A DNA stretch of 64,000 nucleotides, taken from NCBI GenBank assembly GCA_965209035.1, contig OZ242372.1:544001-608000 (forward strand), in the 5' to 3' direction. Position 1 is the first letter of the stretch. The number at the start of each line of letters is the position of its first letter. The translations under genes were made by a program, and so were the position numbers. Below, one piece after another: positions 18,555 through 46,766 of this stretch. A model generated the notes under the pieces. That model ran no database searches. It was given only the letters and a program-made list of their open reading frames with translations, and was not told the origin of the DNA. The stretch is from Gammaproteobacteria bacterium. GTDB lineage: Bacteria; Pseudomonadota; Gammaproteobacteria; CBDBNL01; JAAOII01.

Positions 18555-18782
18555 TTTTTTTATGAAATTCGAAGTTTGTATCGCCCAAACATAAAGAGTA
18601 AAAAATGATACTAATTTTTATACGGCAGGACGCAGTGAATATCCGACTTCTGTTCTCACCCACTCGAAAAAATGCCATGTATAAAAAACAATAATTCCGA
18701 ACCCAATAATGTTCTCTCACATTACTTCATACCGGATATTTAAGTTCATTGCATTTTACAAACAGTTCAATTACAACCCAAA

Positions 18783-19072
18783 CAAACCCGCTTTGTTCCA
18801 TCACCGGCACTAAGTGCAAAAGAACGAGGGCTGATAGGGTATAAAAACTCCCCTCAATCCCTTATAAAACAAGGATTTTTTAAAAAGTTTCCGAAGTCAA
18901 GGGCAAGGTGGTCGCGGGACTACGCCTTAATGAATGCCCGAACAATCCGGCGTTATGAATGTCCCCCTCGGCTCATTTCTTCTAACGACCACCCTTCTTC
19001 TTTTGTCAGCATCTTATAACTTGACTTCGGAAAGAATTTTTTAGATTTTTAAAAACTCTTGTATTTATAAGG
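18783..19072. mobile_element. Cluster of non-coding IS-end/MITE-like repeats
   Basis: 18783-18901 resembles 22570-22681 (both end aagtttcc(g/t)aagtcaag); inverted copy at 19020-19072; tctaacgaccacccttcttcttttgtcagcatcttataa identical at 18981 and 22688. Confidence 0.6.
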
Positions 19073-19141
19073 CGCATGATCTCATAAAGGTTCCGGACTC
19101 TGAGTTCGGCATTGTGCGTCATCAGATCAAGGAGCCGGCGG

Positions 19142-19215
19142 TGTATGATCCCACCCAGTTTCGGACTTTTGTTGTTTTTGTAAAAACCGGATCGGCGAGA
19201 GTTATTTGTGAGCAT
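19142..19215 (-). mobile_element. IS481-like right-end remnant
   Basis: tgtatgatcccacc...ggatcggcgagagtt; same end at 22380 and 31690; partial copy near 19450-19490. Confidence 0.6.
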
Positions 19216-19718
19216 CGCGGGGATCTGCTAAATGATATCAACGCATCCCTCTCATTTCAACTCCGCGGGGCAGCCGCACCCGCATAGTGCAACTGTGTCG
19301 CAAGCGAGAGTGCCGCGACAGATTTTGAACAACAGGCCGCCGCCCGCACCGCGGAGACCGGAGTAGTCGGCAGTCCGGCTTACTCGCCTTATATTTTTAT
19401 TCTTGCGGCACTTGAACCCGGCACCCTCCTGTTTGCGGGTTCCTTAATAGACGGACTTATTTTTGCAAAAACCGGATCAGCGAGAGTTGTTAAGGGAAAA
19501 ACGCGTATCAGCCAGCATAAAAGATCCGGGTGCCTGCCCATAGATTTCGAATAATAATAGATGAGCGGCAGAGACTAAGAATAAGTGGAAAGTTGGAAGT
19601 TGGGCCGGCAGTCGTCTTATTTGTCGTGCTCTGCCCCGCCCTGCCTCGTCCTGTCCCGCCCCGATCTGCCGGTCCGTTCCGGGGCTTCCCTCTTGCCGGC
19701 CTCTCTTACCGGCCCCTC

Positions 19719-22121: not shown

Positions 22122-22379
22122 TACTTCCTATCATTATTAATTGGAATAATGTACCTTATTATTACATTAAATGAGAGTTGAGGAGTAAAATATGAGCATA
22201 AATGCCGGTAAATACAAGAAAAAAGAGGGTTATTTTCTGTTCGCGACCTTCAGAATGGAAGTTTTGGCAGATCCCCAGGCTGTTTGCAATGGCTCTTGAG
22301 GCAAATGGCAAATTTTTTGAAGTGCATAGGTTGTCAAGAGTATAATTCCCTTATTTAATTTTCAAAATCATGTGTATTC

Positions 22380-22726
22380 TGTATGATCCCACCTATTTTC
22401 GGACTTTTTTTGTTTTTGTAAAAACCGGATCGGCGAGAGTTGTTTGTGAGCATAATGGGGACGTCCGAGATGATACCAAGCCAGCCATGCGATGAACTTG
22501 GCATTGAATGCCGGCATATCCTTGGGGGACAGCAGTGCATTCTACAGGCCGTTCAACTAAAACCCAAACAACCCGCTCTGTTGGATCACAAACACTAAGT
22601 GCAAGCCAGGGCTGGCAGGGTATAAAAACGGCTCGCAAACCCTTATAAAATCAAGGTTTTTAATAAGTTTCCTAAGTCAAGATTTTTTCTAACGACCACC
22701 CTTCTTCTTTTGTCAGCATCTTATAA
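22380..22726. mobile_element. IS481-like right end plus MITE-like repeats
   Basis: Minus strand reads FNAKFIAWLAWYH..RPHYAHKQLSP-like transposase C-terminus; shares blocks with 18783-19019. Confidence 0.65.
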
Positions 22727-22826
22727 TATATTCTTGTAACCGGTGCTGCACCGACTATTTGAATTCGTGTGAACATAAAGCACCGGCTACTTGAATTTAG
22801 ATAAAAAAACATTAATAGTATTACAT

Positions 22827-25175
22827 ATGCCTAACATTACTCGCGAACAAAAAGAAAAATATCTGAAGCAATTATCCGCGGAGGAATTTAAGGCAAAGGT
22901 GATTCGTCCGCTTTTTGAAAAAATGGGCTACGGCAGCGGTAAAAACATTGACAGAAGTTCGCAAGATTCCGCGAGTGTTTTATTTATAGACAAGGACAGA
23001 TTGGAGGATATCAGAATTATTCGAGTGATCCCGCATCTCAAGAACATCAATATGGTCAAGACAAGCAAAGAAGAAGTGGAATCTCTAATTCAAACTGTTC
23101 GCTCCGCTTGGCAAGAAAACCTTCGTTTGGAAAATAGCAACAAGAAAGTTCACTGCGATGATATTATTATTTGTTCCACGGGAAAAATTAATGATAAGGC
23201 GGAAAACTATATCAAAAAACAGACAAGCGGTAAAGAACCGAGATTATTCGATTTACAGCGTCTGATCGGCTTAGTGGATAATCATTGCGAGGAGATATGG
23301 AAAAAAGTATCACCGGATGTCATTTTATATTACAACTTCTTGCGGGGTAACATTGAGCAAGACCTCAAAGATCCTTTGGCAACATCCGTGGATAACGAGC
23401 ATTATATTCATCTTAATCTCGGCAGACACATAGCCAAACCTAAAAAGATTGACGGGGAAATAAAACGAGTCCCCGAGTACACGAGTATTGAAGAAACGGA
23501 ACTTCTCCGGCAGAAACATCCAAAATGTATCATTCGCGGCGACGCTGGGATGGGTAAAAGCACTATTTTGCGGCGGTTGGTCTATCAGATTACTCAATAT
23601 TCTCTTCAGGATGAGGGGATGAAACCGATTTTGTTGCTGCCTCAAGATGTGGAAGTATTTGCCGATGCCGATGCGGATACTTTTGTTAAGAAGTGCGATG
23701 CTCATTTCAAAAAATGTATGAATCAACCCGAACAAGTATTCAGTCAGTCCGACTTTGAGCAAGGCAAGGTAGTTCTTTTAGCAGATGCTCTGGATGAAAT
23801 TGCGGATGACCGGCAAGAAAAATTTATAAAACTCCTCAATGAACTGTCTAAAAGATATCCAAAGGTCAAGATCATTTGCACATCAAGACCGGGACAACGC
23901 GAGAAAAAAATGGTTCGCGATGAAGGATATGTGCGGTATGATGTCTCTCATATCAGTTGGCGTCAGGCTCAAAAATTGCTTTCTATTATGAAAAAAGAAG
24001 GGGACCTCCCCCGGTCTATTGCTTCGGAAGTTCTGCGTCGGATCAACTCCATCCATGGCTTGGATCTCACGCCGCTTCTTGTTAAGGTTTTTGCGGCAAC
24101 TTTGACATACTCGCGTCAGGATATACCCGCAAACATTACCGAGTTGTTTAGCAAGTATACCGAACTGATGCTTGGCAGGTGGGATCAAGACAAGGGGTTT
24201 GAGCAGCAATATGAGGCAAACTTAAAGATTTTCCTAATGAAAAAATTGGCGGGATGGATGCATGACAACCGGGTCAGTCACATATCGGAATACAATTTCA
24301 AAAATATCATTGAAGAGGAGATGAAGTCGCGCGGCTACGAAATTAAAATAGAAGAGATTTGCACCGAAATGTTGGAACGATCCGGGCTATTGAAGCGGCG
24401 CGGCGATGCGATACTTTTTACACATCATTTGTTACAAGAATTTTTTGCCGGGATTGGTATATCGGACTTAGACAAAGATGAGATATTCAAAAAATTTGGC
24501 AACCGCTGGTGGACGCGCCCTTTGATGTTTTATTTCGGCAATCGACCGGACGCCATACACAGGCTGGAACAAGCACAAGAAAAAGTATCAACGCGTAAAA
24601 AGTTGGATCCCTATGAAGTTTCCTTGGCGATAGGATTATCATTACAAGCATGCTATCTTTCCGAAGTTTCTACAAGACTGGATATATGGAAAACATTGAT
24701 AAACAACATTGCTATGATCAGCACGCCCCAAGACAAATCTAAAGTTCTATTTCCTCTTTTTGATTCTATGTTCCCTTATGCTGTTTTGCGCGAAGCCGTC
24801 CCTTTGTCTGTCTTAAAAGATCCTTGGAATCAAGAGGAGCTAACCGAATGGTCAAAAACTGCGGATGAGGGTAAGTTTTGCTGGTTTCTCATCGCCTTGA
24901 TGGAAACCGGTTGTTTTGAGAAAGCACACCAACTCATTAAAAAAACAAAGAAATGGAAAAATTCGTTTTATCCGTTTATTTTGTATTGGCATTCCGGGTT
25001 TCTTATGAGGGTATCTGCAATCTCACCGGAACAAAAGAAAACGGTCAATTTAATACGCACCGAATTGGATAAAAGAAATGGTGTGGAATTAATGGAGTTT
25101 CGACGGGAAATTGTAAGAGAGATTGACACCTATTTTTCTTCACCCGATAAAAGCCTGAAAAATGATTCCAAATGA
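22827..25175 (+). CDS. NACHT/STAND NTPase with N-terminal degenerate restriction-endonuclease-like domain (alternative TTG start 22791)
   Basis: Walker A IRGDAGMGKST, Walker B VVLLADALDE, sensor ICTSR, TPLL, F.H..LQEFFA winged-helix motif. Confidence 0.85.
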   Translation: MPNITREQKEKYLKQLSAEEFKAKVIRPLFEKMGYGSGKNIDRSSQDSASVLFIDKDRLEDIRIIRVIPHLKNINMVKTSKEEVESLIQTVRSAWQENLRLENSNKKVHCDDIIICSTGKINDKAENYIKKQTSGKEPRLFDLQRLIGLVDNHCEEIWKKVSPDVILYYNFLRGNIEQDLKDPLATSVDNEHYIHLNLGRHIAKPKKIDGEIKRVPEYTSIEETELLRQKHPKCIIRGDAGMGKSTILRRLVYQITQYSLQDEGMKPILLLPQDVEVFADADADTFVKKCDAHFKKCMNQPEQVFSQSDFEQGKVVLLADALDEIADDRQEKFIKLLNELSKRYPKVKIICTSRPGQREKKMVRDEGYVRYDVSHISWRQAQKLLSIMKKEGDLPRSIASEVLRRINSIHGLDLTPLLVKVFAATLTYSRQDIPANITELFSKYTELMLGRWDQDKGFEQQYEANLKIFLMKKLAGWMHDNRVSHISEYNFKNIIEEEMKSRGYEIKIEEICTEMLERSGLLKRRGDAILFTHHLLQEFFAGIGISDLDKDEIFKKFGNRWWTRPLMFYFGNRPDAIHRLEQAQEKVSTRKKLDPYEVSLAIGLSLQACYLSEVSTRLDIWKTLINNIAMISTPQDKSKVLFPLFDSMFPYAVLREAVPLSVLKDPWNQEELTEWSKTADEGKFCWFLIALMETGCFEKAHQLIKKTKKWKNSFYPFILYWHSGFLMRVSAISPEQKKTVNLIRTELDKRNGVELMEFRREIVREIDTYFSSPDKSLKNDSK

Positions 25176-26403
25176 ATTAAAACAACTCGTCGAAAACGGT
25201 GAGAATTCCAAAGTTGAATTTAAAGACGATCAAGTAAACGGTGAGAATTTGGCACGTGCGATGGTCGCTTTTTTAAATTCCAACGGCGGGCGGATATTCT
25301 TAGGTGTTGAGGATAATGGCAACATCAAAGGTATGGTTATCACAAATAAGGCAATGGAAGAGAAAGTGATGAGTTGGGCTCACAATTTAATTCAACCGCA
25401 GTTCACCCCGAACTGGGAGACGGTGATGATGGGCAATGGCAAACGAGTAGCGATTATTGAGTTACCAAGCCAGGCACCGGACAAACCCTATAAAGCAAGG
25501 GTAGGCAAGGTATGGAAAATTTTCACAAGAAAGGGAAGTCAAATAAGAGAAGCATCCCGAGAAGAAGAAGCCCGCCTTTATTATGCTTCACCGATTGGCC
25601 ATCGTTATGAGACCAAACCTATTGTCGGCAGAAACCTAAAAGACCTGAGCATGGATAGGATAGAAACCTATTTTCGTAAGAGAGGCATTCCAAAATACCT
25701 GCCCCTCCAAAACAATACCAAACAATGGGAGTCCCTGCTAATGAATACCGACTATGCGGTAGAATTTAACCGGCAAGTAACTCCGAATGTGACGGGGATG
25801 CTATTATTTGGTGTGTCTCCATACCAGTTTATGAAGCAATCCGGTATGAGAATAGTTGCGTTCTCGAAGACGGAGAAAGATTATGATTACGAAGGAGATG
25901 ATTTTCGCAGTGCCCTGATACCCGTCCAAAAAGAAGACGGCGAGATCATAGAGCCGGGATTATTTGAGTTGGCATTGCAATTTATTAACCGATTTGTCCG
26001 GCGAAACCGCCTAAACAAAAAAACAGGAAGACGCGTAGAAGAAACAGATTATCCGGTAGAAGTGATTCGCGAAGTTTTGGCAAACGCAATCGTACATCGC
26101 GAGTATGCCCTTGTGCAACAAGAAATTCAAGTTCATATTTACTCCGATAGAATGGAAGTGATTTCACCGGGAGGACTGCCGGACGGCGTCACCGAAGAAA
26201 AGATAAGAAATGGTGTTACCGCAGCGCGTAACCCCACACTGCGAGATGCTATGAGCGCATTTGGATATGTCGATAAAATTGGTATGGGTATTCCCACAAA
26301 AATTATCAAGGGAATGCAAGAACATAACGGGACCGAACCCGAAATCATTCCCAAAGAGGACCTTTTTACTGTGCGTTTATTTAATCGGCATTCAGCCCGC
26401 TAA
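25162..26403 (+). CDS. Schlafen/AlbA_2 domain fused to HATPase-like (RecG C-terminal-like) domain
   Basis: GENSKVEFK, AFLNSNGGRIFLGVED; YPVEVIREVLANAIVHREY, SPGGLP, RNP, GYVDKIGMG. Confidence 0.88.
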   Translation: MIPNELKQLVENGENSKVEFKDDQVNGENLARAMVAFLNSNGGRIFLGVEDNGNIKGMVITNKAMEEKVMSWAHNLIQPQFTPNWETVMMGNGKRVAIIELPSQAPDKPYKARVGKVWKIFTRKGSQIREASREEEARLYYASPIGHRYETKPIVGRNLKDLSMDRIETYFRKRGIPKYLPLQNNTKQWESLLMNTDYAVEFNRQVTPNVTGMLLFGVSPYQFMKQSGMRIVAFSKTEKDYDYEGDDFRSALIPVQKEDGEIIEPGLFELALQFINRFVRRNRLNKKTGRRVEETDYPVEVIREVLANAIVHREYALVQQEIQVHIYSDRMEVISPGGLPDGVTEEKIRNGVTAARNPTLRDAMSAFGYVDKIGMGIPTKIIKGMQEHNGTEPEIIPKEDLFTVRLFNRHSAR

Positions 26404-26485
26404 CACAACACTTGTTTTCAAATATTTATGCTCCGTTTTAAGTTTTTAAGCACTCCGGGTGTTGCACCGGAAGGTTAAATTCACC

Positions 26486-26513
26486 TTCCTTGAATTTTAC
26501 AAAATTCAAGGAA
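26486..26513. terminator. Perfect 13 bp inverted repeat between convergent genes (terminator or protein-binding site)
   Basis: ttccttgaatttt-ac-aaaattcaaggaa. Confidence 0.45.
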
Positions 26514-26583
26514 ACATTTCACGGTGTTGCACTAATTACTTGAGTTCACAGTTCATTAATTCTGGCATTAATTACATCATTCT

Positions 26584-27789
26584 TTACTGCCAGCCGATTA
26601 AAGGATAATCCAATTTCTTGGCAAACGCAGAAAGATACTTTAACTTGAGTCCGGTTAAATCATAAATGTCCCGTGCCATAATGAAGCCACTTTGATAGGC
26701 ATCCAACACGCAGCGCGAAAAATATGTGCCACAGTGCTTAATAGCGGTATTTTCAGGCACAGTGATACCACCCGGCTGCTTATTATCAAACGGTCCGGGG
26801 GTATATTTATCAAGTAACTCCTCTAACTTATTTTGATCAATGAAGTGATTCTGCCGCGCTTGGACCGCCAGCATCTGACGACTCACTTTAATTTCATTTG
26901 CTATTTCTTCAATTTGTGTTCCTGCATCCTCTTGCCGCAACCATACCCGACCCAACCAATCGCTTGGAGCAATCACTTCGGCCGCCACCCTGTTACACCA
27001 TCGCTCTTTTTGCCGAACCTCCTTATCCGCAATATCTTCGTAATACTGACTGCGAAAATTGATAACCGACACAGCGGTATCGCCCAACAACAAATGTGCC
27101 AATTCATGCATCAATGTAAAAATAGAGCGAGCACTTCTAAGCTTCCTCCCCGGATTAAGTAAAATCACAGGGGCTATTTCATCCGGAATTGCAAGCCCGT
27201 CATATTCCTCGGAAGTAATCTTATAACTTTTGTGTGTGTCATTTGTTAGCACCGGAATACCTCTCTTCTCAACGGCATCACGCCACAGATCAAAAGCATC
27301 TTCAACACTGCCACAACCCCGCACAGTTTCAACTGTTACACCCAACCACTCCCGGATCCTAAACGCCGACTCAGCCGGCGTAAGAGTCATATCGGCAGCA
27401 AACGGCTGGGCAAAATTCTTTTGGCCGGTTTCTCGTAAATAGTCTCTTAACCAACGCTGCCGCATGCGTGCCTCTCTGATAGCAAAACGCAAATTGGGTA
27501 AATAAGGTTTTTTCTGTTCATCACGCCTAAAATCAAGCGGCAATTCATCCGGCAGTTCCGCGGGCAATTCTTTCAAACAAAAAAGAATATAAAACACACG
27601 ATACTTCGTGGCAAGTTTTTTTGCTTCAGTTAAAGTGGGTCGCTCCTTCCCGCTTTCCCAAGAGCGAATTTTTTCCGCAGCATCCTTCACTCCGGACAAC
27701 GACACATCTTCCGGCCGCCCATAACCCACTCTTTCCCGTATCCCCTTCAAAGTAGAAGGAACGACAGGAAGTATCACCCTGGCAGACAC
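26584..27789 (-). CDS. XRE-HTH + ImmA/IrrE family metallopeptidase
   Basis: WESGKERPTLTEAKKLA; DFR; FTLMHELAHLLL; ERWCNRVAAE. Confidence 0.9.
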   Translation of the reverse strand: MSARVILPVVPSTLKGIRERVGYGRPEDVSLSGVKDAAEKIRSWESGKERPTLTEAKKLATKYRVFYILFCLKELPAELPDELPLDFRRDEQKKPYLPNLRFAIREARMRQRWLRDYLRETGQKNFAQPFAADMTLTPAESAFRIREWLGVTVETVRGCGSVEDAFDLWRDAVEKRGIPVLTNDTHKSYKITSEEYDGLAIPDEIAPVILLNPGRKLRSARSIFTLMHELAHLLLGDTAVSVINFRSQYYEDIADKEVRQKERWCNRVAAEVIAPSDWLGRVWLRQEDAGTQIEEIANEIKVSRQMLAVQARQNHFIDQNKLEELLDKYTPGPFDNKQPGGITVPENTAIKHCGTYFSRCVLDAYQSGFIMARDIYDLTGLKLKYLSAFAKKLDYPLIGWQ

Positions 27790-27862
27790 AGAATATTACC
27801 TATACCGGCACTCGATAAAATCTTATTTTTACTTGGAAAAAATAAGATGCGTTTATCTGTTC

Positions 27863-28228
27863 TTACTCTGCTGCCGGCTTATCCGACCAAACGGCATATT
27901 CGTTGCCGTTCGGGTCGCAGAAGTGAAACCGCCGACCGCCCGGGAACGAAAAGACCGGCTTGACAATCTCGCCGCCGGCTTTCACAACCTTTGCTTCGGT
28001 GCATTCCAGATCCTCGCTGTAAAACACCACCAAAGCGGCGCCTTGATCGGCATCGGAGCATTTGTCATCGCGATAAAACCCACCGTCCAGCACTCCGTCC
28101 GAAAACGCCAGGTAGTCTTCACCATAAGCGGTGAAGGACCAGCCGAACACCTCGTCAAAAAACTTTTGCGCTAACTTCAAGTCCTTGGCGGGGAATTCCA
28201 CATAGTTAATTTTTTCGTGTTTGTTCAT
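27863..28228 (-). CDS. VOC/glyoxalase family protein
   Basis: INYVEFPAKDL, FGWSF..YG, FPGGRRFHFCDPNGNEYAVWS. Confidence 0.93.
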   Translation of the reverse strand: MNKHEKINYVEFPAKDLKLAQKFFDEVFGWSFTAYGEDYLAFSDGVLDGGFYRDDKCSDADQGAALVVFYSEDLECTEAKVVKAGGEIVKPVFSFPGGRRFHFCDPNGNEYAVWSDKPAAE

Positions 28229-28369
28229 ACTGTTATTTTACTCCCAATCGGCTCGTTTGAATTCCAATTAGCCCGGTTCGCCTCGCTTCTGTTCCCCCTG
28301 CTACTCCTGTTGTCCGCCGCGCACATCAAAGAACTGCCAATCAAAACCGCCCCCGAACCGCTTCTCGCT

Positions 28370-28470
28370 TCGCACACAATCTGCCTTACATACGGAATGT
28401 TGCCCGCCAGGGATGCACTTCTATCGAAACAAGCGACATACATACCGGAACGGTTTCCAATGCCCACATT
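28370..28470 (-). pseudogene. Degenerate copy of the GIY-YIG N-terminus of the upstream gene
   Basis: NVGIGNRSGMYVACFDRSASLAGNIPYVRQ vs NYGIENRSGIYVVCFDGSAPLAGNVLYVGQ (30480-30580). Confidence 0.75.
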
Positions 28471-30634
28471 ATTTGTCCTTAAAGGACGAAGACCGGCGGC
28501 TACCGTCCCGCGACGGTCTTGCCGAACCGGAGCCAGCATCTCTTTCCCTATCACTACCCTTAAAAGATGAAGACCGGCGGCTACCGTCCCGCGACGGTCT
28601 TGCCGAACCGGAGCCATAACCTCTATCTCTACCTCCAAACGACGAAGACCTACTGCCACCTTCCCGCGGCGGTCTCGCTGAACCGGAACCATAACCTCTG
28701 TCACTGCCCTTAAAGGACGAAGACCGACTGCCACCTTCCCGCGGCGGTCTCGCCGAACCGGAGCCATAACCCCTATCACTACCTTTAAAGGACGAAGACC
28801 TGCGGGCACCATCCCGCGGCGGTCTTGCCGAACCAGAACCAGCATCTCTGTCCCTGTCTCTGTCACCACCTCTAAATGACGAAAACCGACCGCCACCATC
28901 TCGCGGCGGTCTCGCCGAACCGGAGCCATAACCCCTATCACTCCCTTTAAAGGACGAAGACCGGCGAGCACCGTCCCGCGGTGGTCGCGCCGAACCGGAG
29001 CCATAACCCCTATCACTACCCTTAAAGGACGAAAACCGACCGCCACCTTCCCGCGACGGTCTTGCCGAACCAGAACCAGCATCTCTGTCCCTGTCTCTGT
29101 CGCCGCCCCTAAATGACGAAAACCGACCGCCACCGTCCCGCGACGGTCTTGCCGAACCGGAGCCATAACCCCTATCACTACCCTTAAAGGACGAAAACCG
29201 ACCGCCACCTTCCCGCGGTGGTCTCGCCGAATCGGAACCCGAACCATAATCTCTATCTCTAAACGACGAATACCTACTGCCACCTTCCCGCGGAGGTCGC
29301 GCCGAACCGGAACCATAACCCCTATCACTACCTTTAAAGGACGAAGACCTACTGCCACCTTCCCGCGGAGGTCTCGCCGAACCGGAACCATAATCCCTGT
29401 CTCTATCACCACCCCTAAATGATGAAGACCTACTGCCACCATCTCGCGGAGGTCTTGCCGAACCGGAACCAGCATCTCTGTCCCTGTCTCTATCACCACC
29501 CCTAAACGACGAATACCTACTGCCACCTTCCCGTGGCGGTCTCGCCGAACCAGAACCATAATCCCTGTCTCTATCACCACCCCTAAATGATGAAGACCTA
29601 CTGCCACCATCCCGCGGAGGTCGCGCCGAACCGGAACCATAACCCCTATCACTACCTTTAAAGGACGAAGACCTACTGCCACCTTCCCGTGGCGGTCTTG
29701 CCGAACCAGAACCATAATCCCTGTCTCTATCACCACCCCTAAATGACGAAGACCTACTGCCACCATCTCGCGGAGGTCTCGCCGAACCGGAACCGGAGCC
29801 ATAACCCCTATCACTACCTTTAAAGGACGAAGACCGACGGCCACCGTCCCGCGGCGGTCTTGCCGAACCGGAACCGGAGCCATAACCCCTATCTCTACCT
29901 TTAAAGGACGAAGACCCCCGGCTACTATCCCGCGGCGGTCGCGCCGAACCGGAACCGGAACCATAATCCCTATCTCTGTCACCACCCTTAAACGATGAAG
30001 ACCCGCTGCTACCGTCCTCCGGCTGTTTGACGGAGCCGGATCCATCACCACTATCCTCAAATGACGAATACCGGCGGCTACCGTCCTCCGGCTGTTGGAA
30101 CGATGAATATCTGCGGCTACCGTCTTCCGGCTGCCGGAATGTTGAATACCTACGGCCACCGCCCTGCGAACTGAAAGATTGTTTACCCATCGGTTCGTCC
30201 GGATTCTCTTGCCCGTCACGCCCAAAGGACCGGCGGCTATCGCCCCCTCGCTGTTGGACCGAGCCGAACTCATCATCCCCAAACAATGAGGACCGGCGGC
30301 TATCGCCCCCCGGACCGGAAGATTGTTTATTAAGAAGCGGACGAAATTTTTGAGTTAGAAGTTTTTCCGTTTCGTCTCTCGTGTTATCGTCATCTTCATA
30401 AATAATCCAAATGGAATAGGACCCTTTACACTGCCTCAACATTCCATCGCTTTCGTGTTCTTCCAAACGAACAAGAACATCAACAGATTGCCCCACATAC
30501 AGAACATTGCCTGCCAGTGGCGCACTTCCATCGAAACAAACGACATAAATACCGGAACGGTTTTCAATGCCATAATTCTTTGCTCCCAATCTATAAGGAC
30601 CTTGGGGGGAGGGTATATCGTATATTTGCATCAT
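28469..30634 (-). CDS. GIY-YIG nuclease-like domain fused to ~600 aa Arg/Gly/Ser/Asp low-complexity repeat tail (start corrected to MMQIYD)
   Basis: SGIYVV...VLYVGQS.DV..RLEEH...ETEKLL..FRPLLN; 19 GSARP repeat units. Confidence 0.8.
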   Translation of the reverse strand: MMQIYDIPSPQGPYRLGAKNYGIENRSGIYVVCFDGSAPLAGNVLYVGQSVDVLVRLEEHESDGMLRQCKGSYSIWIIYEDDDNTRDETEKLLTQKFRPLLNKQSSGPGGDSRRSSLFGDDEFGSVQQRGGDSRRSFGRDGQENPDEPMGKQSFSSQGGGRRYSTFRQPEDGSRRYSSFQQPEDGSRRYSSFEDSGDGSGSVKQPEDGSSGSSSFKGGDRDRDYGSGSGSARPPRDSSRGSSSFKGRDRGYGSGSGSARPPRDGGRRSSSFKGSDRGYGSGSGSARPPRDGGSRSSSFRGGDRDRDYGSGSARPPREGGSRSSSFKGSDRGYGSGSARPPRDGGSRSSSFRGGDRDRDYGSGSARPPREGGSRYSSFRGGDRDRDRDAGSGSARPPRDGGSRSSSFRGGDRDRDYGSGSARPPREGGSRSSSFKGSDRGYGSGSARPPREGGSRYSSFRDRDYGSGSDSARPPREGGGRFSSFKGSDRGYGSGSARPSRDGGGRFSSFRGGDRDRDRDAGSGSARPSREGGGRFSSFKGSDRGYGSGSARPPRDGARRSSSFKGSDRGYGSGSARPPRDGGGRFSSFRGGDRDRDRDAGSGSARPPRDGARRSSSFKGSDRGYGSGSARPPREGGSRSSSFKGSDRGYGSGSARPPREGGSRSSSFGGRDRGYGSGSARPSRDGSRRSSSFKGSDRERDAGSGSARPSRDGSRRSSSFKDK
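28480..29990 (-). repeat. Coding tandem repeat, 19 units of ~23-29 codons, GSGSARPPR(D/E)GG(S/G)R(S/F/Y)SSF(K/R)G(S/G)DR(GY/DRDY/DRDRDA)
   Basis: Counted SARP motifs in translation; gccgaacc(g/a)ga recurs on + strand. Confidence 0.95.
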
Positions 30635-30727
30635 TAAATATGTATATTGATTTTTAATAAAAGTTCGGCACCGGTCGGGAAAGGATTCAGAGAAAGAGAA
30701 CACTCCCGCCAACCCGTCCCGATTTTG

Positions 30728-31071
30728 CCTCTCGCCACAAAACGGTATAAAGATAGCATAAAGGCGGCACAAAACGGCATCAATGGCTTCCGCATTGCCG
30801 GTGCCATACCATCTCTCTTCACCCGGTCATTGTCATAATAAACACAGATATTCGGCACACGAGATGCCCCCCCGTTGCGTTTCCAACTGCCTTCACGACC
30901 ACAAGCATGCAAACGATCCGCGCGTGTCCCGGCTTGGCCTGCATCCGCAACTTGTGTTGCTTCGTCATCACAGGCACTACAGACAATACAGGCACCCGGG
31001 TAATTCCCGGTGGCATGACTATCCTTTGAAACAGGTTCTCCAAAAGAATTGCCTAATGAATTGCGTAGCAT
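30728..31071 (-). pseudogene. Decayed paralog of the small GIY-YIG-like protein at 46767-47072
   Basis: SFGEPVSKDS..GNYPGA...VADAGQAGTRADRL...REGSWKRNG..NICVYY vs SFEGPFQKDS..GNQPGV...VVDVGQSETLADRL...REDCWKQNG..NIYVYY; terminal PFCGER lies in another frame. Confidence 0.75.
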
Positions 31072-31289
31072 TTGTTTATCGTCTTCAAACATATTGATAT
31101 CTTTATCCCATCTTGGTCCCATCCCGCCAAATTTGGGGCTTGTTCTATTGAGAACTAAAGCGGAGGGAATAATGTGTGAACATAACGGGGATACTAAAAT
31201 TATACCGCAGAAGCCAGTCAACAAATGCGGATTTGAGCGCAAGAATACTCTTAAACAAAAGATGTCGCACAACAGTCAAAGAATTCCCC

Positions 31290-31460
31290 CCAAGGCACTT
31301 AGGCACTTATTAAGAAGCGCGATTCCGCCTTCCACAACAACCCGATAACAATGCCAGCCGAACTCACCGCCGTTACAGACGAGTTGTTTTTGTTCGGGTG
31401 AGAACCCCCCGCAATTCTGAACGCAGGTAAATAGCCGGGCTGCGCCGGCGGAACCGCCAG
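31290..31460 (-). mobile_element. Highly decayed IS481-like integrase-core fragment
   Basis: AARLFTCVQN...NGGEF..H..RVV parallels ARLFTVRQN...DNGSEFAKDFHRVV at 31950-32100. Confidence 0.5.
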
Positions 31461-31578
31461 AGGTATCGGCAGCAGCCGGCGATATGCAAGAAAACAAGCC
31501 CATACCGACATGCAAACAGATACGCCGACCACGGATAATGCGGGCGACCCTATCAAGCCTTAATCACTTTGCTTTATT

Positions 31579-31671
31579 AAAATTAAAAAAATGCCGAGCA
31601 TCCGGGAGGGAAACATAATGAATCAAAATACCCCCCCCAAACGCCCGGCAAAATCATTACAACACCCGGCT
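31579..31671. repeat. ~90 bp dispersed repeat (MITE/IS end-like), copy 1
   Basis: aaaaaaatgccgagcatccg..agggaaac...ccaaacgcccggcaaaatcattacaacacccggct, also at 36518-36605. Confidence 0.8.
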
Positions 31672-31689
31672 GACTGGATATGTATAGTC

Positions 31690-32110
31690 TGTATGCTCCC
31701 ACCCATTCCCGGACTTTTTTTGTTTTTGCAAAAATTGGATCGGCGAGAGTTGTTTGTGGGCATAATGAGGGCACTCGCGATGATACCAAGCCAACCATGC
31801 GATGAGTTTGGCTTGAATGCCGGCAGATCCTTAAACAGGAGATGCCGCATAGGACAACCGAACTATTCCCCCAAGGTTATTTTTTAAGGAGCGCAATTAA
31901 ACCGTTCGCAGTGTGCATTCATTTGCGATTTCTCCAAAAAACAACATAGCATAGGCATACCAGTGTCTGCTGCCGTTTGCGGTCACGACCCGGTGAAAGT
32001 CTTTGGCGAACTCACTGCCATTGTCGGGGAGGGCTTTTTCGATCCGAGTGCCGAGTATGTTTTGCCTAACGGTAAAGAGCCGGGCGGAACGGGCCGCAGC
32101 GGCCAAACGA
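31690..32110 (-). mobile_element. IS481-family transposase remnant (frameshifted C-terminal half and right end)
   Basis: DNGSEFAKDF (rve core); LLFKDLPAF/AKLIAWLAWYHRECPHYAHKQLSPIQFL...GWEHT; 5'-TGT terminus. Confidence 0.75.
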
Positions 32111-32154
32111 GATCTCAGTCTGCTTCTTGCTTTTGCTTGCCCGCTGCTGAAAGT

Positions 32155-34758
32155 CTACTGCCGTCGCTGCTGCTCTTCCACGCTGACAGGAAGACAGTTC
32201 AAAACGGGATACTGGTCTGCGTCGCCGAGATCCCAGACGCTTAAGAATCCGGCAGGTTGGATCGCCTCTTCTATTACTTCGCCCGTGTCCGGATCACACC
32301 GGATGTTACCCCAGTCGGCATAGATGCCTGTGAAAGTGCTCGGGTTTTGCAGCAGGGCGGTGGTCTGACCCTCGCCCAAATCGCCGGCACTGGCTGACTG
32401 CCGGGTGGTTTGATTATCCCAATAGGAAGCATTGACGGTGGTTACCATGTTGACATTGCCGAGCAAACCGCCGGCATTAATACCGAAACTTGAAACAAGT
32501 CCGCCGGCGGCATAAGAATAACGAATATTAGAATTCTGACCATCCCCAACCAACCCGCCAACAACATTAACTCCGGTAACACTTCCGCCGGATACATACG
32601 CATAGCGAATATCAAAATTGCGAGCAAATCCAATCAGTCCGCCAACATTACTAGATCCGATAGCAGATCCGCCTAAGCGTTTTACTCTCCCGGAAACATT
32701 CACGCCGGACGCATAAGCATAACGAATATCAGACTCAACACTAAACACGGAATTAGACTCGGAACTAGGCCAACCGCCGACTAGTCCGCCAATATTAAAT
32801 CCGATTCCGGTTCCAAAAACACTTCCGTCGGACACATACGCATAGCGAATATCAATATACCGGCCATTCCCAACCAGTCCGCCAACATCATGCTCGCCGA
32901 CAACACTTCCGTCGGACACATACGCATAGCGAATATCCATATTCTGACCATTCCCAACCAGTCCGCCAATACTAAAATCCCCGCCGGAAACATCTACGCC
33001 GGTTGAATGAGCATAGCGAATAACAGCACCCCGACCATCCCCAACCAATCCGCCGACGACGTCGGCATCCGGACTCATCACACTGCTACTCGTAACCGAC
33101 AAATTCTCATAACGGGCATTCCTGCCATAGCCTACCAGTGTGCCCACAGCATTGTCACCGCCACTGACACTTGCATTCAAGAGATGCAGATTTTGGATAT
33201 CACCGGTTAATGCAGCGAATAAGCCCACTCCATTGACGGTATCATCCGCAGCAATGAACAGACCGGCAAGAGTATAGCCGCCGCCGTCAAAGATTCCCGT
33301 ATAAGAGGTGCAAACATCTGCATCAGAACAGGAGCCAATCGGCAGCCAGCCGCTGCCGGCACGATCTGTCCAGTCGTCCATATTACCGCTGCTACCGCTA
33401 CCCGTGACATAGGAAGCCACATCGCTAAAATTGAGTGAGCGGGCAAGTTCATAACCCGAGCAGCCGACAGTATCCGGGCAACCCACAGAGCCCACAGAAG
33501 TTATCTCGTCAACATTGCCGTCATCCTCACCATCGCCGTTCAGATCATCGCGCAGCCGCGCCAAGTCATCCAAAGTGCGAATTTCTATGAGGCGATTATT
33601 ATTGTCATCCACATCCTCATCGTTATCCCGACAACCGTCACCGTCATTGTCCGTCCCCGCCAAAGAAGTCCAGCCAACCATACCGGTCGGGCAAGCATCC
33701 GCAATATCATCCACACCATCATTATCATTGTCATCATCACAGACATCGCCGAGTGCATCCTGATCATTATTGGACTGCCCCGGATTATTGATAAACTGGC
33801 AGTTATCCGCCGCCGTGGTCGCGTTTGCCACATCCGGCAAACCATCATTGTCATCATCCGGATCACAGGCATCGCCTAACCCATCCGTATCATTATCATC
33901 TTGCCCCGGATTATCCGTGAATTGGCAGTTATCCGCCGCCGTCGTCGCGTCTGCCACATCCGGCAAACCATCATTGTCATCATCCGGATCACAAACATCG
34001 CCTAACCTATCCGTATCATTATCATCCTGCCCCGGATTCCTAACTAGCGGACAATTATCTTCCATATTCGACAAACCATCAATATCAATGTCCCCATCCA
34101 AGCCTATGCCTTGATCCGCCCCGGTTGTGCCGGACACAGGAGATGACATCGCGGTATCGCCGTCCTTATAGAGTACCGTAATCGTGATCCGGTAAGCGGT
34201 GTTATTGGTTAGATCCATAATGTTGTAGATGACCCGAGCAAGCGGCGCAACATCCGCCATGGTAGAATTAAGTTCCGTTGTGTCGCCTTCACTCGTATCG
34301 TCATCAACATTGTGCCGGGTAATATTAAACCCGGTGATGTTCATCTGATCCGGATTGGTCCAACCGACAAAAATATGATCCTCGCCAACCAGAGTCTGGA
34401 TATTGGAAACAGCCCGGGTGTTTTGGCCATTGTCAGTGCCGCCACTGCTACCGCCGCCGCTACCGCCGCCACAACCGGCCAGGGCCAAACCGAACATACC
34501 CGCCAGCAGCACACCATAAAAGCGAGCCGGCTTATCCGGCTGACGGCAAGCATTAGAGGCCGCTGTAGCGGCAATGTAACGGTGGTGTGTGTGGGGGGGG
34601 GTAAGCATTAGAGACCGCCGTAGCGACAATGTAACCCGCCCGCCAAACGACATCATAGTATTTGGCATATTATTAAGGCCCCGCACGAATGCCGGGCATG
34701 ACAGCCAGCCGCGTATTGCTTTCGCCGACCGAACAGGAAAAAAGTATAACTTATTCAT
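32155..34758 (-). CDS. Large surface lipoprotein: FN3-like domain, thrombospondin type 3 repeats, GLUG region (paralog of 19719-22121)
   Basis: Lipobox LALAG|C; DNC...NPGQDDNDTD..GD.CDPDDDNDG repeats; GGLVG repeats; shared C-terminus VWDLG...QYPVLNCLP. Confidence 0.85.
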   Translation of the reverse strand: MNKLYFFPVRSAKAIRGWLSCPAFVRGLNNMPNTMMSFGGRVTLSLRRSLMLTPPHTHHRYIAATAASNACRQPDKPARFYGVLLAGMFGLALAGCGGGSGGGSSGGTDNGQNTRAVSNIQTLVGEDHIFVGWTNPDQMNITGFNITRHNVDDDTSEGDTTELNSTMADVAPLARVIYNIMDLTNNTAYRITITVLYKDGDTAMSSPVSGTTGADQGIGLDGDIDIDGLSNMEDNCPLVRNPGQDDNDTDRLGDVCDPDDDNDGLPDVADATTAADNCQFTDNPGQDDNDTDGLGDACDPDDDNDGLPDVANATTAADNCQFINNPGQSNNDQDALGDVCDDDNDNDGVDDIADACPTGMVGWTSLAGTDNDGDGCRDNDEDVDDNNNRLIEIRTLDDLARLRDDLNGDGEDDGNVDEITSVGSVGCPDTVGCSGYELARSLNFSDVASYVTGSGSSGNMDDWTDRAGSGWLPIGSCSDADVCTSYTGIFDGGGYTLAGLFIAADDTVNGVGLFAALTGDIQNLHLLNASVSGGDNAVGTLVGYGRNARYENLSVTSSSVMSPDADVVGGLVGDGRGAVIRYAHSTGVDVSGGDFSIGGLVGNGQNMDIRYAYVSDGSVVGEHDVGGLVGNGRYIDIRYAYVSDGSVFGTGIGFNIGGLVGGWPSSESNSVFSVESDIRYAYASGVNVSGRVKRLGGSAIGSSNVGGLIGFARNFDIRYAYVSGGSVTGVNVVGGLVGDGQNSNIRYSYAAGGLVSSFGINAGGLLGNVNMVTTVNASYWDNQTTRQSASAGDLGEGQTTALLQNPSTFTGIYADWGNIRCDPDTGEVIEEAIQPAGFLSVWDLGDADQYPVLNCLPVSVEEQQRRQ

Positions 34759-35285
34759 TGTGTTGTTATCGTGTTGTTATCCGTATTAATTATTCATTTA
34801 ACTTTTATGCGGATGGAATGATTCCATACCCTGCCTTAATTATAACACCTATTTCCCAAATATGTCTGTGGCGGATCACCTCGTCCGCCAGAACCTCAAA
34901 CCGCCGAGAACCGCCGGCTATTTAATGTGAGGATGCACAATGCCCAACTCAGCGTCCGGAACCTTTATGAGACTATGCACATCCACATCCCGGCAAGGTT
35001 TTAGAATCGGCGTTTGAGAGAATTCGCCCCAAGCCCCGGAAAATTCCGAAAACTAAAGTCCTGCCGGGAGACCTCTCAAGGTGCCGGGAAAGACACCGGG
35101 AAAGACACCGGGAAAAGTACCGCGCAAGAAACCGACAAGCAAGTTGCGCTACGCGGAAATAGAAATGAAACACGGAATGCGACTCCGTTCTATTGGTCAC
35201 GCCTGCGCGGGTGAAACAAAATTGCAAGAACACCCCCCCTTACCAAACAAGTAAGTATTAAAATATAAATAAAAAATATATTATT

Positions 35286-36497
35286 ATGTCTGTCCGCGTT
35301 ATTGCCCCGGTTATTCCTACTGCCTTAATTCAAATAAGAGAGATGGCCGGCTACGACAGCCCGGAAAAAATTCATCCCGGGCGGGAAAAAGAAACAGAAA
35401 AACTGCGCGCATGGGAAGCGGGAAAGACAAAGCCGACTTTAAATCAAGCCAAGCAACTTGCCAAAAAATATCGGATATCGCATCTTCTGTTTTATTCCAA
35501 GGATTTACCCGATACTTTTCAAACAAAATTACCGCCGGACTTCAGGCGATATAAAAGGCGGCAGCCCTATTCGCCCAATTTACGCTTTGCCGTCAGAGAA
35601 GTGTTCTATCGCCAAGAGTGGTTGAAAGATTATTTAAGAGACACAGAACAACAAAACTTTTCCCCGCCGCAGTCCGTCCAAATTAGCGATAACCCGCGGA
35701 CCCTTGCCACCAAAATCCGAAAATGGTTGGGTATCACAATGAACACCCAACAGCGTTGTCGCAAGACTGAAGATGCCTTTGATTTGTGGCGAAGTGCCAT
35801 TGAAAAACAAGGAGTCACAGTATTCACCAATAATACGCATCGCTACTACAAAATTAACCCCGGCGAATACGACGGACTGGCTATCTCGGACAACCTCGCC
35901 CCGCTCATATTACTTAATCCGGGGCCCAACTTAAAAAATAGCCGCTCTATTTTCACACTGATACATGAACTGGCACATTTGCTCTTAGGCGAAGGCGCAT
36001 TATCTCTTATCAATTTCCGCAGTCAAAACAATATCAATAACACGGATGCACGCGAACTGCAAATAGAATCTTGGTGCAATAAAGTGGCAGGCGAAGTCCT
36101 TGCCCCGAATGAATGGCTAACACAAAATTGGTCCGCCACCGAACCCAGCCGACAACAAATTGAGACACTCGCCGACAGCATAAAAGTCAGTCGACAAATG
36201 CTTGCCGTGCAAGTTAAAAATAATCATTTGATCGGCCAACAAAAACTGGAACAATTGCTCACCGAATACGAAGGGCAATTTCACTTGTCCCGCCAAAATA
36301 AACGCAGTTTTGGCATAACTCGTCCTGCCCCCGCAACCATCAAAAGATGCGGAAGTTACTTTTCCCGATGCGTTTTGGATGCCTATCAAAAAAACAGCAT
36401 AGCCGCCACTGATATTTATGACCTAACGGATCTTAAGTTGAAATATCTTAAAGAATTCGCTCACAAAATAGACTTTCCCTTGCATCGTTGGCGATGA
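35286..36497 (+). CDS. XRE-HTH + ImmA/IrrE family metallopeptidase (paralog of 26584-27789)
   Basis: WEAGKTKPTLNQAKQLA; FTLIHELAHLLL; ESWCNKVAGE. Confidence 0.9.
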   Translation: MSVRVIAPVIPTALIQIREMAGYDSPEKIHPGREKETEKLRAWEAGKTKPTLNQAKQLAKKYRISHLLFYSKDLPDTFQTKLPPDFRRYKRRQPYSPNLRFAVREVFYRQEWLKDYLRDTEQQNFSPPQSVQISDNPRTLATKIRKWLGITMNTQQRCRKTEDAFDLWRSAIEKQGVTVFTNNTHRYYKINPGEYDGLAISDNLAPLILLNPGPNLKNSRSIFTLIHELAHLLLGEGALSLINFRSQNNINNTDARELQIESWCNKVAGEVLAPNEWLTQNWSATEPSRQQIETLADSIKVSRQMLAVQVKNNHLIGQQKLEQLLTEYEGQFHLSRQNKRSFGITRPAPATIKRCGSYFSRCVLDAYQKNSIAATDIYDLTDLKLKYLKEFAHKIDFPLHRWR

Positions 36498-36517
36498 CAG
36501 TATTTTTATTTGATACA

Positions 36518-36605
36518 AAATAAAAAAATGCCGAGCATCCGAGAGGGAAACAAAATGAATAACAACCCGCCCAAACGCCCGGCAAAATCATTACAACACC
36601 CGGCT
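36518..36605. repeat. ~90 bp dispersed repeat, copy 2
   Basis: Matches 31579-31671. Confidence 0.8.
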
Positions 36606-36870
36606 AACGGGATCTTAACAATTAACGCCTCTCGTTCGTTGTTATGTTATATGTTAGTTAGTTATTTAAAAGACAAGTTCCCAAACTTTGCCGACAAGCA
36701 TCAAGCCCCCGGAACGCACACTGCGAAACCGAAAAAACCGGAGATGCCAAAAAAGCTAAAAAGGCAGCCCATGCCGTGAAGACCTCAAAAACTTCGAAGA
36801 CCACGAAGACCGCGAAGATCCCAAAAACACCCCCGCCCAAAACTTCATCCAATCGCAAGCAACCGCCCAT

Positions 36871-37632
36871 TCAATCCCCCCGACAGGTCAGAGCGAGTTC
36901 CCGAATGCGTTGTTCGCGCGCACGCCAATCCGGCAGGTGGCCGGCAAGCATCCTATAAAACTCACGCCCGTGATTCCGATGACGCAAATGGCACAACTCA
37001 TGCACCAACACATATTCAATACAACTCACCGGCCCCTTAATCAGTTGCATGTTCAGCGACATATTCCCCTTCACCGACAAACTACCCCAACGGCTCGTCA
37101 TATCCTTCACACGCATCACAGGTCGCTCATAGCCCAAACCCACAAAGCGCGGCCAGACCCCATCATAAAGTTTGCCGAACACCTCCCACGCCTGTGCCAG
37201 ATACCATGCCTTCAACACAATACGCATCCCGGCGGGACTCATATCCGGCCCCCGCAAAAACAACCAATCATGCCGAAGTTCCACCCCATAGTCGGCGGCG
37301 ACTTCGGTCCGCAAACGGTATTGCCGTCCCAGGTACAAATGCGTCTCACCCTCGGCATAGGCACGCGGCGGCATCGCAATCGGCAAAAGACGAAACTGTT
37401 GTTGCTTCTTAAGAATCCATCGCTCCCGCTTGGCAAGAAGTTCCCGCAACCGAGCCGCCGATGTGCCAACCGGCGCACGCATCCCAACCCGCCCATCAGG
37501 CCGCACCGAAATCTCCACAGACAGCCGGCGCAGCGAATACACAATCGCCACATCCGTTTCCTTACCGCCCAACGACACACGCACAGAATCCGTGCCTGTG
37601 TTTTTATGCGTGATGCTTGTCCCTGTCTTCAT
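36871..37632 (-). CDS. M48/SprT-like zinc metallopeptidase (YgjP/DUF45 family), typical last gene of type I RM loci
   Basis: GETHLYLG, MTSRWGS, YVLVHELCHLRHRNHGREFY, PDW. Confidence 0.92.
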   Translation of the reverse strand: MKTGTSITHKNTGTDSVRVSLGGKETDVAIVYSLRRLSVEISVRPDGRVGMRAPVGTSAARLRELLAKRERWILKKQQQFRLLPIAMPPRAYAEGETHLYLGRQYRLRTEVAADYGVELRHDWLFLRGPDMSPAGMRIVLKAWYLAQAWEVFGKLYDGVWPRFVGLGYERPVMRVKDMTSRWGSLSVKGNMSLNMQLIKGPVSCIEYVLVHELCHLRHRNHGREFYRMLAGHLPDWRAREQRIRELALTCRGD

Positions 37633-38033
37633 TATTCAATCATTTAACTAACTGCCTAACCGCCTAATCGCCCAGCCGCCAAACCGCCCGACTTCCCTGC
37701 ACAGTCACCGCCCGGCAAACTATTGAAGCGGGGACAAAAGATCCTCGGCATCAATCGGGACTTCCCGCACAGCCATCGCCCGGCACAAAGAATTGGCAAT
37801 GACAGCACCGGTTCTCTCTTGCCGGTTCTCTTGCATCTCAACAGCCAAAGTGAGCACTTGGGTTTGATGACGAGTTCCCCGAACATCCGGCTCCGTCCCT
37901 TCAACTTGCTTTTGCATCGCTGTCTTTGTGATAGGGGCCCTCAAAAAGATAACTCAGAATTTTTATTCTGCTCATAAAAGTTAAAGTAATTTATGAGATA
38001 TCCCGGTAACCACTTTAGAAATGAACCGAATTA

Positions 38034-40331: not shown

Positions 40332-40409
40332 TTCATTTTTTAATATATCCTTTAAATTTTAATATTGGCGGTTCTATCTAAAACAAAACAGAAACTCATC
40401 TTTGGTAAA

Positions 40410-45448: not shown

Positions 45449-45460
45449 TGTTATTTCCTC

Positions 45461-46684: not shown

Positions 46685-46766
46685 ATTTCAATTGCAATAA
46701 ACCATTTTTTCTAAATCATAAAAGGATGCGGAGGAAGCGAATGCTCCCGCCGAATCCTTTTCGGTT

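Follow-up and report, generated by a model that had tools for sequence, protein, structure and literature searches.

The tailed open reading frame

We analysed a 64,000-nucleotide stretch of the genome of a Gammaproteobacteria bacterium (GenBank assembly GCA_965209035.1, contig OZ242372.1, positions 544,001 to 608,000 of the forward strand). This whole stretch is called the window below, and positions are counted from its first letter. On its minus strand lies an open reading frame (ORF) that joins a small N-terminal domain of GIY-YIG nuclease type to a 616-residue low-complexity tail. This ORF, referred to as the tailed gene, is composed as follows.

28469..30634, minus strand: tailed GIY-YIG ORF, 721 amino acids plus stop, translated without interruption (ORF list)
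30320..30634, minus strand: N-terminal GIY-YIG-type domain, residues 1–105 (Pfam, family profiles, conserved positions)
29945..30319, minus strand: proximal degenerate tail, residues 106–230 (read from the translation)
28472..29944, minus strand: regular 19-unit array (Tandem Repeats Finder, unit table, codon-position and synonymous/nonsynonymous tests)

From stop to stop the frame comprises 785 codons, and its earliest possible start is a TTG at 30772. The ATG at 30634 matches Met1 of 101-amino-acid paralogues in the alignment. A scan of positions 26000–36000 against Rfam returned only one chance-level miRNA match.

The N-terminal domain

The N-terminal domain (N-domain) is compact and of ordinary composition, with an isoelectric point (pI) of 4.9. 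Its translation holds the complete set of GIY-YIG positions, namely G28-I29-Y30, Y46-V47-G48, R56, H60, E90 and N102. In an alignment of 99 family sequences, Y30, G48, R56 and H60 are invariant and G28, V47, S50, E90 and P99 are at least 90% conserved. N102 lines up with the Asn of the P-x-x-N motif found in UvrC and in the YVGQ-type relatives described below.

Profile comparisons were then made with solved structures. A profile of 10 sequences matched the GIY-YIG domain of UvrC (1yd6) over the full domain length with E 1.3e-6, and gave weaker matches to T4 endonuclease II, I-TevI and Eco29kI. The 99-sequence profile matched UvrC 1yd6 (E 4.5e-6), the GRXS16 chain 2lwf (7e-4), which we take to be a GIY-YIG domain, and T4 endonuclease II 2wsh (8e-3); the match of the family profiles to I-TevI 1mk0 was weak. 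The genome's own UvrC was recovered by the family profile, and UvrC-sized frames were matched (E <= 1e-6) in 213 of 400 genomes of the class, a tally that takes in three genomes flagged unpublished (G044, G145 and G311). When the N-domain was compared as a single sequence with solved structures, no match reached an E below 0.5. NCBIfam returned only sub-threshold UvrC, Cho and intron-endonuclease hints.

Five distant relatives of the N-domain (30–43% identity) were obtained by pattern scans of metagenome contigs, and four of them pass the cut-off of Pfam PF01541 (22.6 bits) with 23.2–32.3 bits. A gene annotated as a GIY-YIG nuclease on a Nostoc plasmid is 35% identical to the N-domain and also lies above this cut-off, at 27.3 bits. 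A candidate from the scan of genome contigs, L004, was rejected as a relative: it is a PD40 beta-propeller protein. Because of the profile homology and the catalytic residues, the assignment of the N-domain to the GIY-YIG superfamily, with a predicted intact catalytic set, is supported. This agrees with the initial annotation, which had proposed a GIY-YIG nuclease-type domain with its signature positions intact from the sequence letters alone.

A long, periodic and polycationic tail

The composition of the 616-residue tail is dominated by Ser (23%), Gly (22%) and Arg (18.5%), followed by Asp (10%), Pro (6.5%), Phe (5%) and Tyr (3%). Its pI is 11.2 and its net charge +51; it contains 51 aromatic and only 4 aliphatic residues. 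The aromatic residues are mostly spaced 7 and 18 residues apart in alternation. The tail is thus low-complexity, charged, poor in hydrophobic residues and regularly spaced in aromatics, as is typical of the composition of phase-separating tails.

Tandem Repeats Finder describes the main array as 18.7 copies of a 75-nucleotide (nt) period with 76% matches (score 1200). Over 28477–29957 it also detects periods of higher order, 162 and 237 nt long (score 1348). Anchored on the residues ARP, the array resolves into 19 units: nine of 25 amino acids, six of 27, three of 29 and a last one truncated at 17. They follow the pattern ARPPR[DE]GGxRxSSF[KR]G...GSGS. Upstream of the array, residues 106–230 hold about six further irregular copies of the G-x-R-R-x-S-S-F core. 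Terminator-like sites reported within the array by a terminator scan are the repeat unit itself.

The 19 repeats rich in R, G, S and D with regularly spaced F/Y, which had been noticed at the outset, are therefore as first described. The description of the tail as RGG/RS-type holds in part: it is indeed low-complexity, but the RGG label does not fit, the whole tail having only 7 RGG triplets. The motifs RP[PS]R[DE]G (18 occurrences), R-x-S-S-F (20) and GSGS (20), together with RD/RE, characterise it better.

The tail is coding and constrained

Units of the array measure 75, 81 or 87 nt, and the last one 51 nt, all multiples of three; length variation is in whole codons throughout, as had been pointed out in the initial annotation. 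In a codon alignment of the 19 units, the variable columns at codon positions 1, 2 and 3 number 9, 8 and 22 of 29 respectively (Fisher p = 7e-5). We then compared 54 pairs of units of the same length by the Nei-Gojobori method. In the GIY-YIG frame, the proportion of synonymous differences (pS) is 0.325 and that of nonsynonymous differences (pN) is 0.093, giving a pN/pS ratio of 0.29. The early remark that synonymous differences are numerous among the repeats is borne out by these values. In the shifted frames, pN/pS is 1.33 and 1.58. One of these stays open through the array (ORF 28225..30282, 685 amino acids) and was considered as a coding frame; at pN/pS 1.33 it was rejected, and it is therefore open merely owing to composition.

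A pN/pS of 0.29 at a pS of 0.33 indicates that the units are old and have been kept open and similar at the protein level. The tail most likely grew by in-frame expansion of a coding minisatellite of 75–87 nt. These data, of which pN/pS is the strongest argument, indicate translation of the tail and purifying selection on it, either today or over a long past period. The tailed gene is a real, lineage-restricted protein-coding gene.

The architecture in databases

No Pfam, NCBIfam or PADLOC family covers residues 106–721, no solved chain matched the tail, and no match was found in 50,697 phage records. Within the genome itself, windows with at least 60% R, S, G and D number 522 in the tailed frame versus 40 in the next frame, and no second stretch of this kind or other protein with such a tail was seen. 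Other weak matches of the tail in the genome, a GLUG surface protein and short non-genes, were discarded.

A GIY-YIG domain fused to a 600-residue periodic polycationic tail was not found in the databases or literature searched. The architecture, which could not be recognised when the sequence was first read, was thus met nowhere else in these searches.

Other GIY-YIG copies around the tailed gene

The genome contains four copies or remnants of the family, all in the window and inside a 19-kb part of the island to which the tailed gene belongs; none was found elsewhere in the 2.24-Mb genome. Besides the tailed gene, the following features belong to this cluster or adjoin it.

30637..31071, minus strand: ORF4, a GIY-YIG paralogue of par3 type (145 amino acids), immediately upstream of the tailed gene
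30489..30586, minus strand: 98-bp direct repeat, 5' copy, about codons 16–49 of the N-domain
28382..28478, minus strand: 98-bp direct repeat, 3' copy, remnant of a second GIY-YIG gene just past the array
46770..47072, minus strand: par3, an intact stand-alone paralogue of 101 amino acids between hsdS and hsdM, 30% identical to the N-domain
31690..32096, no strand assigned: insertion-sequence fragment upstream of ORF4, from an element with many genomic copies (blastn against the genome)

ORF4 is 44% identical to par3 (E 6e-18; BLASTP E 3e-24). The alignment reveals that the GIY Tyr is replaced by Cys, Ser by Ala, His by Cys and Glu by Pro, so that from its residues ORF4 is predicted to be catalytically dead or decayed. 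The stop codon of ORF4, TAA, shares its last A with the start codon ATG of the tailed gene (TAATG at 30636–30632). ORF4 also bears a 43-residue C-terminal extension of its own. Neither ORF4 nor the N-domain matched PHROGs.

The two copies of the 98-bp repeat are 80% identical in a local DNA alignment, with one 1-nt gap. Translated in another frame, the 3' remnant is 64% identical to residues 16–51 of the N-domain, and the stop codon of the tailed ORF falls inside it. The two copies bracket a region that starts midway through the N-domain and ends with the array; recombination between them would delete the tail.

The insertion sequence upstream of ORF4 has 27 genomic copies longer than 350 bp, many of them near-identical. 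An ORF at 31897–32106 within the fragment contains the motif PDNGSEF, which we take to be typical of rve transposases. Further fragments of this insertion sequence lie in the window at about 19142–19215, 22378–22523 and 36521–36605. The sequences immediately on either side of par3 and of the tailed gene, four in all, gave only self-matches in the genome, and no inverted repeats were found adjoining the tailed gene.

Judging from their residues, the tailed gene is the sole copy of its subtype with a putatively intact catalytic set, and the copies of the cluster are in different states of decay. The dead paralogue upstream and the 98-bp remnant downstream raise the odds that the whole cluster is decaying.

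A family of small GIY-YIG-like proteins

A profile search of a collection of 5.8 billion clusters, restricted to lengths of 45–203 amino acids, identified 260 proteins at E <= 1e-3 among 2523 candidates. Most of them are 100–103 amino acids long and carry no Pfam domain. The common, par3-type pattern reads FEGPY...SGVYV...DVGES...R..HDR.DCW...IEQEIR..PPCGER. In a quick tree search, in which many forks remain unresolved, 87 par3-type rows separate from 12 YVGQ-type rows with a support (SH-aLRT) of 96. The N-domain of the tailed gene falls among the latter, which include phage-type sequences. Taken together, the comparisons suggest that the N-domain belongs to the 'YVGQS' subtype and is a minimal GIY-YIG nuclease domain; relatives of this subtype are probably small stand-alone or phage-encoded nucleases.

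Small stand-alone members occur in only four of the 400 genomes of the class besides the source genome. At these four loci the neighbours are SMODS and SLATT_4 genes; HsdM; SocA/Panacea with an IS1595 transposase; and a LytTR regulator with a radical-SAM enzyme. In another genome, L019, a family member likewise adjoins hsdM, as par3 does. In addition, a YVGQ-type relative with 31% identity is located on an IMG/VR viral contig among phage peptidase, DNA polymerase, exonuclease and helicase genes. The defence and mobile neighbours and the phage replication module lead us to place the family in the mobile and defence gene pool.

Genomic island

The tailed gene is located in a variable island between ychF and sppA. 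Domain and defence-model scans, together with the comparison with relatives, gave the following features.

18600..55300, no strand assigned: variable island between ychF and sppA
27863–28228, minus strand: glyoxalase-fold protein, downstream of the tailed gene (Pfam)
26584–27789, minus strand: helix-turn-helix (HTH) and IrrE/M78 peptidase protein, downstream of the tailed gene (Pfam)

The gap between ychF and sppA is 36.8 kb here. Two other genomes from the family have gaps of 5.6 and 12.7 kb, and in a third the two genes are far apart. The island contains an Mrr-NACHT STAND gene, a Schlafen/AlbA_2-HATPase_c_4 gene, two HTH/IrrE peptidase genes, YgjP, an OLD nuclease, a type I restriction-modification operon with DUF6119, and three PDDEXK_4 genes. 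The label 'defence island', applied in the initial annotation, is a fair one. No terminator-like site was found between the tailed gene and the glyoxalase and IrrE genes by the terminator scan, and the glyoxalase gene was not found in five relatives. PADLOC-DB assigned no family to the tailed protein, which is not a known defence protein.

Several other genes of the window were recorded. The Mrr_cat and NACHT/STAND gene (794 amino acids) overlaps the Schlafen AlbA_2 and HATPase_c_4 gene (413 amino acids) by 14 bases (22791–26403, plus strand), and the product of the latter matches PADLOC pAgo-associated models with E 1e-16 to 1e-18. In the type I restriction-modification operon, the DUF6119 gene (43787–45448, minus strand) stands between hsdR and hsdS, and the OLD-family AAA and TOPRIM nuclease is just downstream (38034–40115, minus strand). 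The three PDDEXK_4 genes are tandem paralogues of 381–392 amino acids in a low-GC stretch of 34–37% (49775–53380, plus strand). Surface paralogues with fn3, TSP_3 and GLUG domains flank the central island at 19719–22121 and 32155–34758 (both minus strand); they have a 2495-amino-acid relative elsewhere in the genome (C1:203739–211223). Finally, an ORF for an N6_N4 DNA methyltransferase (338 amino acids; 6114–7130, minus strand) lies amid ribosomal-protein genes (SecY, L2, L3).

Read support for the array

Every one of the 30 bins of the region is covered, with identical sequence, in three sequencing runs that come from a single sample, which is probably the source. Within the array the three runs show no difference in letters or indels except two minor variants in one run. 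In run X1, unique unitigs internal to the array have a depth of 22–24.4, compared with 19.1–26.5 for the single-copy flanks; this equality argues against collapse or inflation of the array. The units have diverged enough to be placed (76–79% matches). No single contig or read crosses the whole array in the runs examined, and no RNA run was found among the sequencing runs that contain the region.

Run X4 derives from another sample with the same species label. Seven reads, 90–95% alike and three of them fitting partly, fell on 28100–28663 and 30544–30900, and none on the 1.9 kb between. The middle of the gene is thus either absent from the X4 population or less than 90% alike there, a weak sign that the tail is not conserved.

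Comparison with known systems

The closest solved relative of the N-domain is the N-terminal GIY-YIG domain of UvrC (1yd6, 1ycz). Profile homology extends over the whole domain, and the GxY, YxG, R, E and P-x-x-N elements align. UvrC has a Tyr where the tailed protein has its His. Furthermore, the UvrBC-interaction, RNase H-like and helix-hairpin-helix domains of UvrC are missing here, and a 616-residue disordered tail takes their place.

SsnA of Neisseria meningitidis is a 94-amino-acid, single-domain GIY-YIG protein that acts as a site-specific nuclease on single-stranded DNA (PMC11893778). The Ssn group (cd10448) is comparable in that a minimal domain of about 100 residues can act without any added domain; par3 and the majority of the 260 family proteins likewise consist of a single domain of about this length. 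At 721 amino acids the tailed protein is unlike Ssn, whereas par3 (101 amino acids) would fit the size range of about 90–150 amino acids. Dispersed flanking repeats of the SRM/NTS type are absent at both par3 and the tailed gene; as the flanks of both genes are unique in the genome, neither has an SRM-like dispersed repeat. By its length and by these flanking repeats, the tailed gene is not Ssn-type.

GIY-YIG homing endonucleases of the I-TevI or Seg type, which are free-standing or intron-encoded, combine an N-terminal catalytic domain with a C-terminal extension, which in I-TevI consists of a linker, a zinc finger and a helix-turn-helix. The tailed protein resembles them in this layout, with an extension that would likewise hold the substrate, in the weak profile match to 1mk0 and in having a relative in a phage replication module. 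It differs in that its extension is a low-complexity repeat with no recognisable fold and its location is chromosomal. It falls outside the classical homing endonucleases, as it has no folded domain for binding.

Basic, Arg-rich appendages are known from bacterial helicases. Two reports state that the disordered extensions of RhlE1 and RhlE2 raise RNA binding and drive phase separation (PMC11260450), and that the disordered extension of type II RhlB likewise gives more RNA binding and phase separation (PMC13462270). As in the tailed protein, a basic, low-complexity, disordered appendage is attached to an enzyme acting on nucleic acid. Here, however, the partner is a nuclease-type domain, the tail is much longer and strictly periodic, and there is no sequence homology.

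The closest motif parallels of the tail are two metagenomic proteins, P0011 (IF-2) and P0012 (radical-SAM). Their disordered regions hold 21 and 10 RP[PSA]R[DE] repeats respectively, with a period of 26–27 amino acids in P0012 versus 25–29 in the tail. They share with the tail the short RPPR[DE]GG motif and a nearby aromatic residue, but the host proteins are different and the RxSSF and GSGS parts are lacking. Since P0011 and P0012 both carry long tandem arrays of RPPR[DE]GG close to a W or Y, such repeats may be a type that recurs in the disordered regions of bacterial proteins.

Interpretation

The reading that we prefer, to which we give about an even chance, is that the tailed gene encodes a lineage-specific nuclease in which a polycationic disordered tail would replace a missing nucleic-acid-binding module. 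GIY-YIG domains are typically modular and usually depend on added DNA-binding parts (PMC1564403; PMC11893778). For the minimal domain described here, the 616-residue disordered tail of charge +51 would take the role of such a module. We expect it to make multivalent, sequence-independent contacts with RNA or with single- or double-stranded DNA, which would tether the nuclease to its substrate and concentrate it there. The tail may also condense together with nucleic acid at high density, driven by its regularly spaced Arg and Phe/Tyr residues. In view of the island setting, the likeliest role would be an attack on invading nucleic acid, or a similar selfish role. Nuclease activity, nucleic-acid binding by the tail, condensation and a defence role are what we infer, binding and condensation from the composition of the tail.

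A number of observations weigh against this reading. With Pfam PF01541, the isolated N-domain reaches 20.6 bits (E 5.6e-4), short of the cut-off, and the full tailed protein 15.1 bits. A HMMER search of 1.84 billion representatives with the single N-domain sequence returned five matches, all of them rejected as spurious (repeat-rich surface or Tudor/PKD-type proteins), and a single-sequence AlphaFold model of the domain was unusable, with a mean predicted local distance difference test score (pLDDT) of 38.4. A search with the N-domain through 60 further genomes, drawn from the family, order and class, was negative; no tailed member was found among the 260 family proteins, within the 45–203 amino acids searched, and no match of the small family with a long frame among the 400 genomes of the class. 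With the tail as query, only P0011 and P0012 were matched, at the motif level; BLASTP gave no alignment of the tail with P0011, which places the likeness at that level. Neither a Shine-Dalgarno-like sequence upstream of the ATG nor any promoter in a scan of 27700–32300 was seen. Exact look-ups of the protein from four ATG starts of its frame found none in a collection of 15 billion proteins, and those for two alternative-frame ATG versions and for ORF4 were likewise negative (seven ATG versions in total); look-ups from GTG or TTG starts are invalid tests because the reference translation then starts with Val or Leu. Read support for the tailed gene comes from one sample only, and in run X4 no read at least 90% alike fell on the middle 1.9 kb, at low depth and with about 12% of the run read. 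Lastly, as the flanking copies are dead or fragmentary and an insertion-sequence fragment lies upstream, the locus looks partly like a graveyard.

The main rival reading is that the tail is a by-product, in which a coding minisatellite expanded in one copy of a decaying GIY-YIG cluster after the normal stop had been lost; the long protein might then be produced in small amounts, with no selected function. Such an origin would account for the loss of four conserved catalytic positions in ORF4, for a downstream remnant that provides the stop codon by an accident of frame, and for the insertion-sequence fragment upstream. It would also agree with a singleton tail for which the searches revealed no tailed relative, with the missing Shine-Dalgarno and promoter-like signals, with the absence of the gene under ATG starts from the protein collection, and with the second sample, whose reads cover the flanks but, at 90% likeness or more, not the middle 1.9 kb. 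The array itself is difficult to reconcile with it. Neutral decay would be expected to have broken the frame already, yet 1.85 kb of diverged repeats run without a stop or a frameshift and the ratio of 0.29 at a pS of 0.33 contrasts with 1.3–1.6 in the other frames. The catalytic set is moreover intact, unlike that of ORF4. We consider a by-product possible but rather unlikely.

A selfish, free-standing endonuclease of homing type, which would spread by cutting new sites and copying itself into them, with the basic tail serving as a crude DNA-binding domain, is improbable. It would explain why a single island has four copies or remnants in 19 kb, with one of them wedged between hsdS and hsdM, and why a family member adjoins an IS1595 transposase. 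Three close paralogues are each reported on a 10,576-bp metagenome contig, probably one and the same contig; on a viral contig, a YVGQ-type relative has genes for DNA polymerase, exonuclease and helicase as neighbours, and the N-domain groups with the 12 YVGQ-type rows that include phage-type sequences (SH-aLRT 96). However, a structured DNA-binding domain, an intron and an intein are all absent, the flanks of the copies are unique, the rest of the 2.24-Mb genome holds no copy, and the 50,697 phage records yielded nothing.

A more specific version of a defensive role, in which the tail would co-condense with phage nucleic acid, the GIY-YIG domain would degrade what is captured, and the putatively dead ORF4, translationally coupled through TAATG, might act as a regulatory or inhibitory partner, is speculative and in our view quite improbable. 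If true, this condensate-based immune nuclease would be without precedent among prokaryotic defence effectors in relying on a disordered domain that phase-separates.

The idea of a host-directed mimic, put forward in the initial annotation and taken here as an SR/RGG-like protein of eukaryotic type delivered into a eukaryotic host, finds no support and is very unlikely: only the R/S/G/D-rich composition with RxSSF and RD repeats speaks for it, while no marker of type IV (VirB4), type VI (VipB, the sheath) or type III/flagellar (FHIPEP) secretion was found in the 92.7%-complete genome, the tail matched no solved chain, its closest motif parallels (IF-2, radical-SAM) are bacterial and the gene sits among defence genes. 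An assembly artefact, with the length or frame of the array wrong, is barely credible either; no contig or read spans the array and all runs that contain it come from one sample, but 30 of 30 bins are covered in three runs that agree apart from the two minor variants, array and flank depths are equal, and the units differ enough for placement.

Significance

The combination of a GIY-YIG domain with a periodic polycationic tail is unusual, known from one assembly, and of unproven function. The preferred reading, a nuclease with its binding module replaced by the tail, would represent a different solution to substrate capture, by a long disordered polycation and not by a folded DNA-binding domain. 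More generally, the family of GIY-YIG-like proteins of about 100 amino acids to which the N-domain belongs is widespread, mostly unannotated and recurrent beside defence and mobile genes. If the tailed protein is active, it would offer a compact natural model of how far a bacterial nuclease reaches, how processive it is or how toxic it becomes when it bears a multivalent disordered tail, and could first link condensate-type behaviour with phage defence. If it is inactive, it would be a clear case of a coding minisatellite held in frame by selection within a decaying gene cluster.

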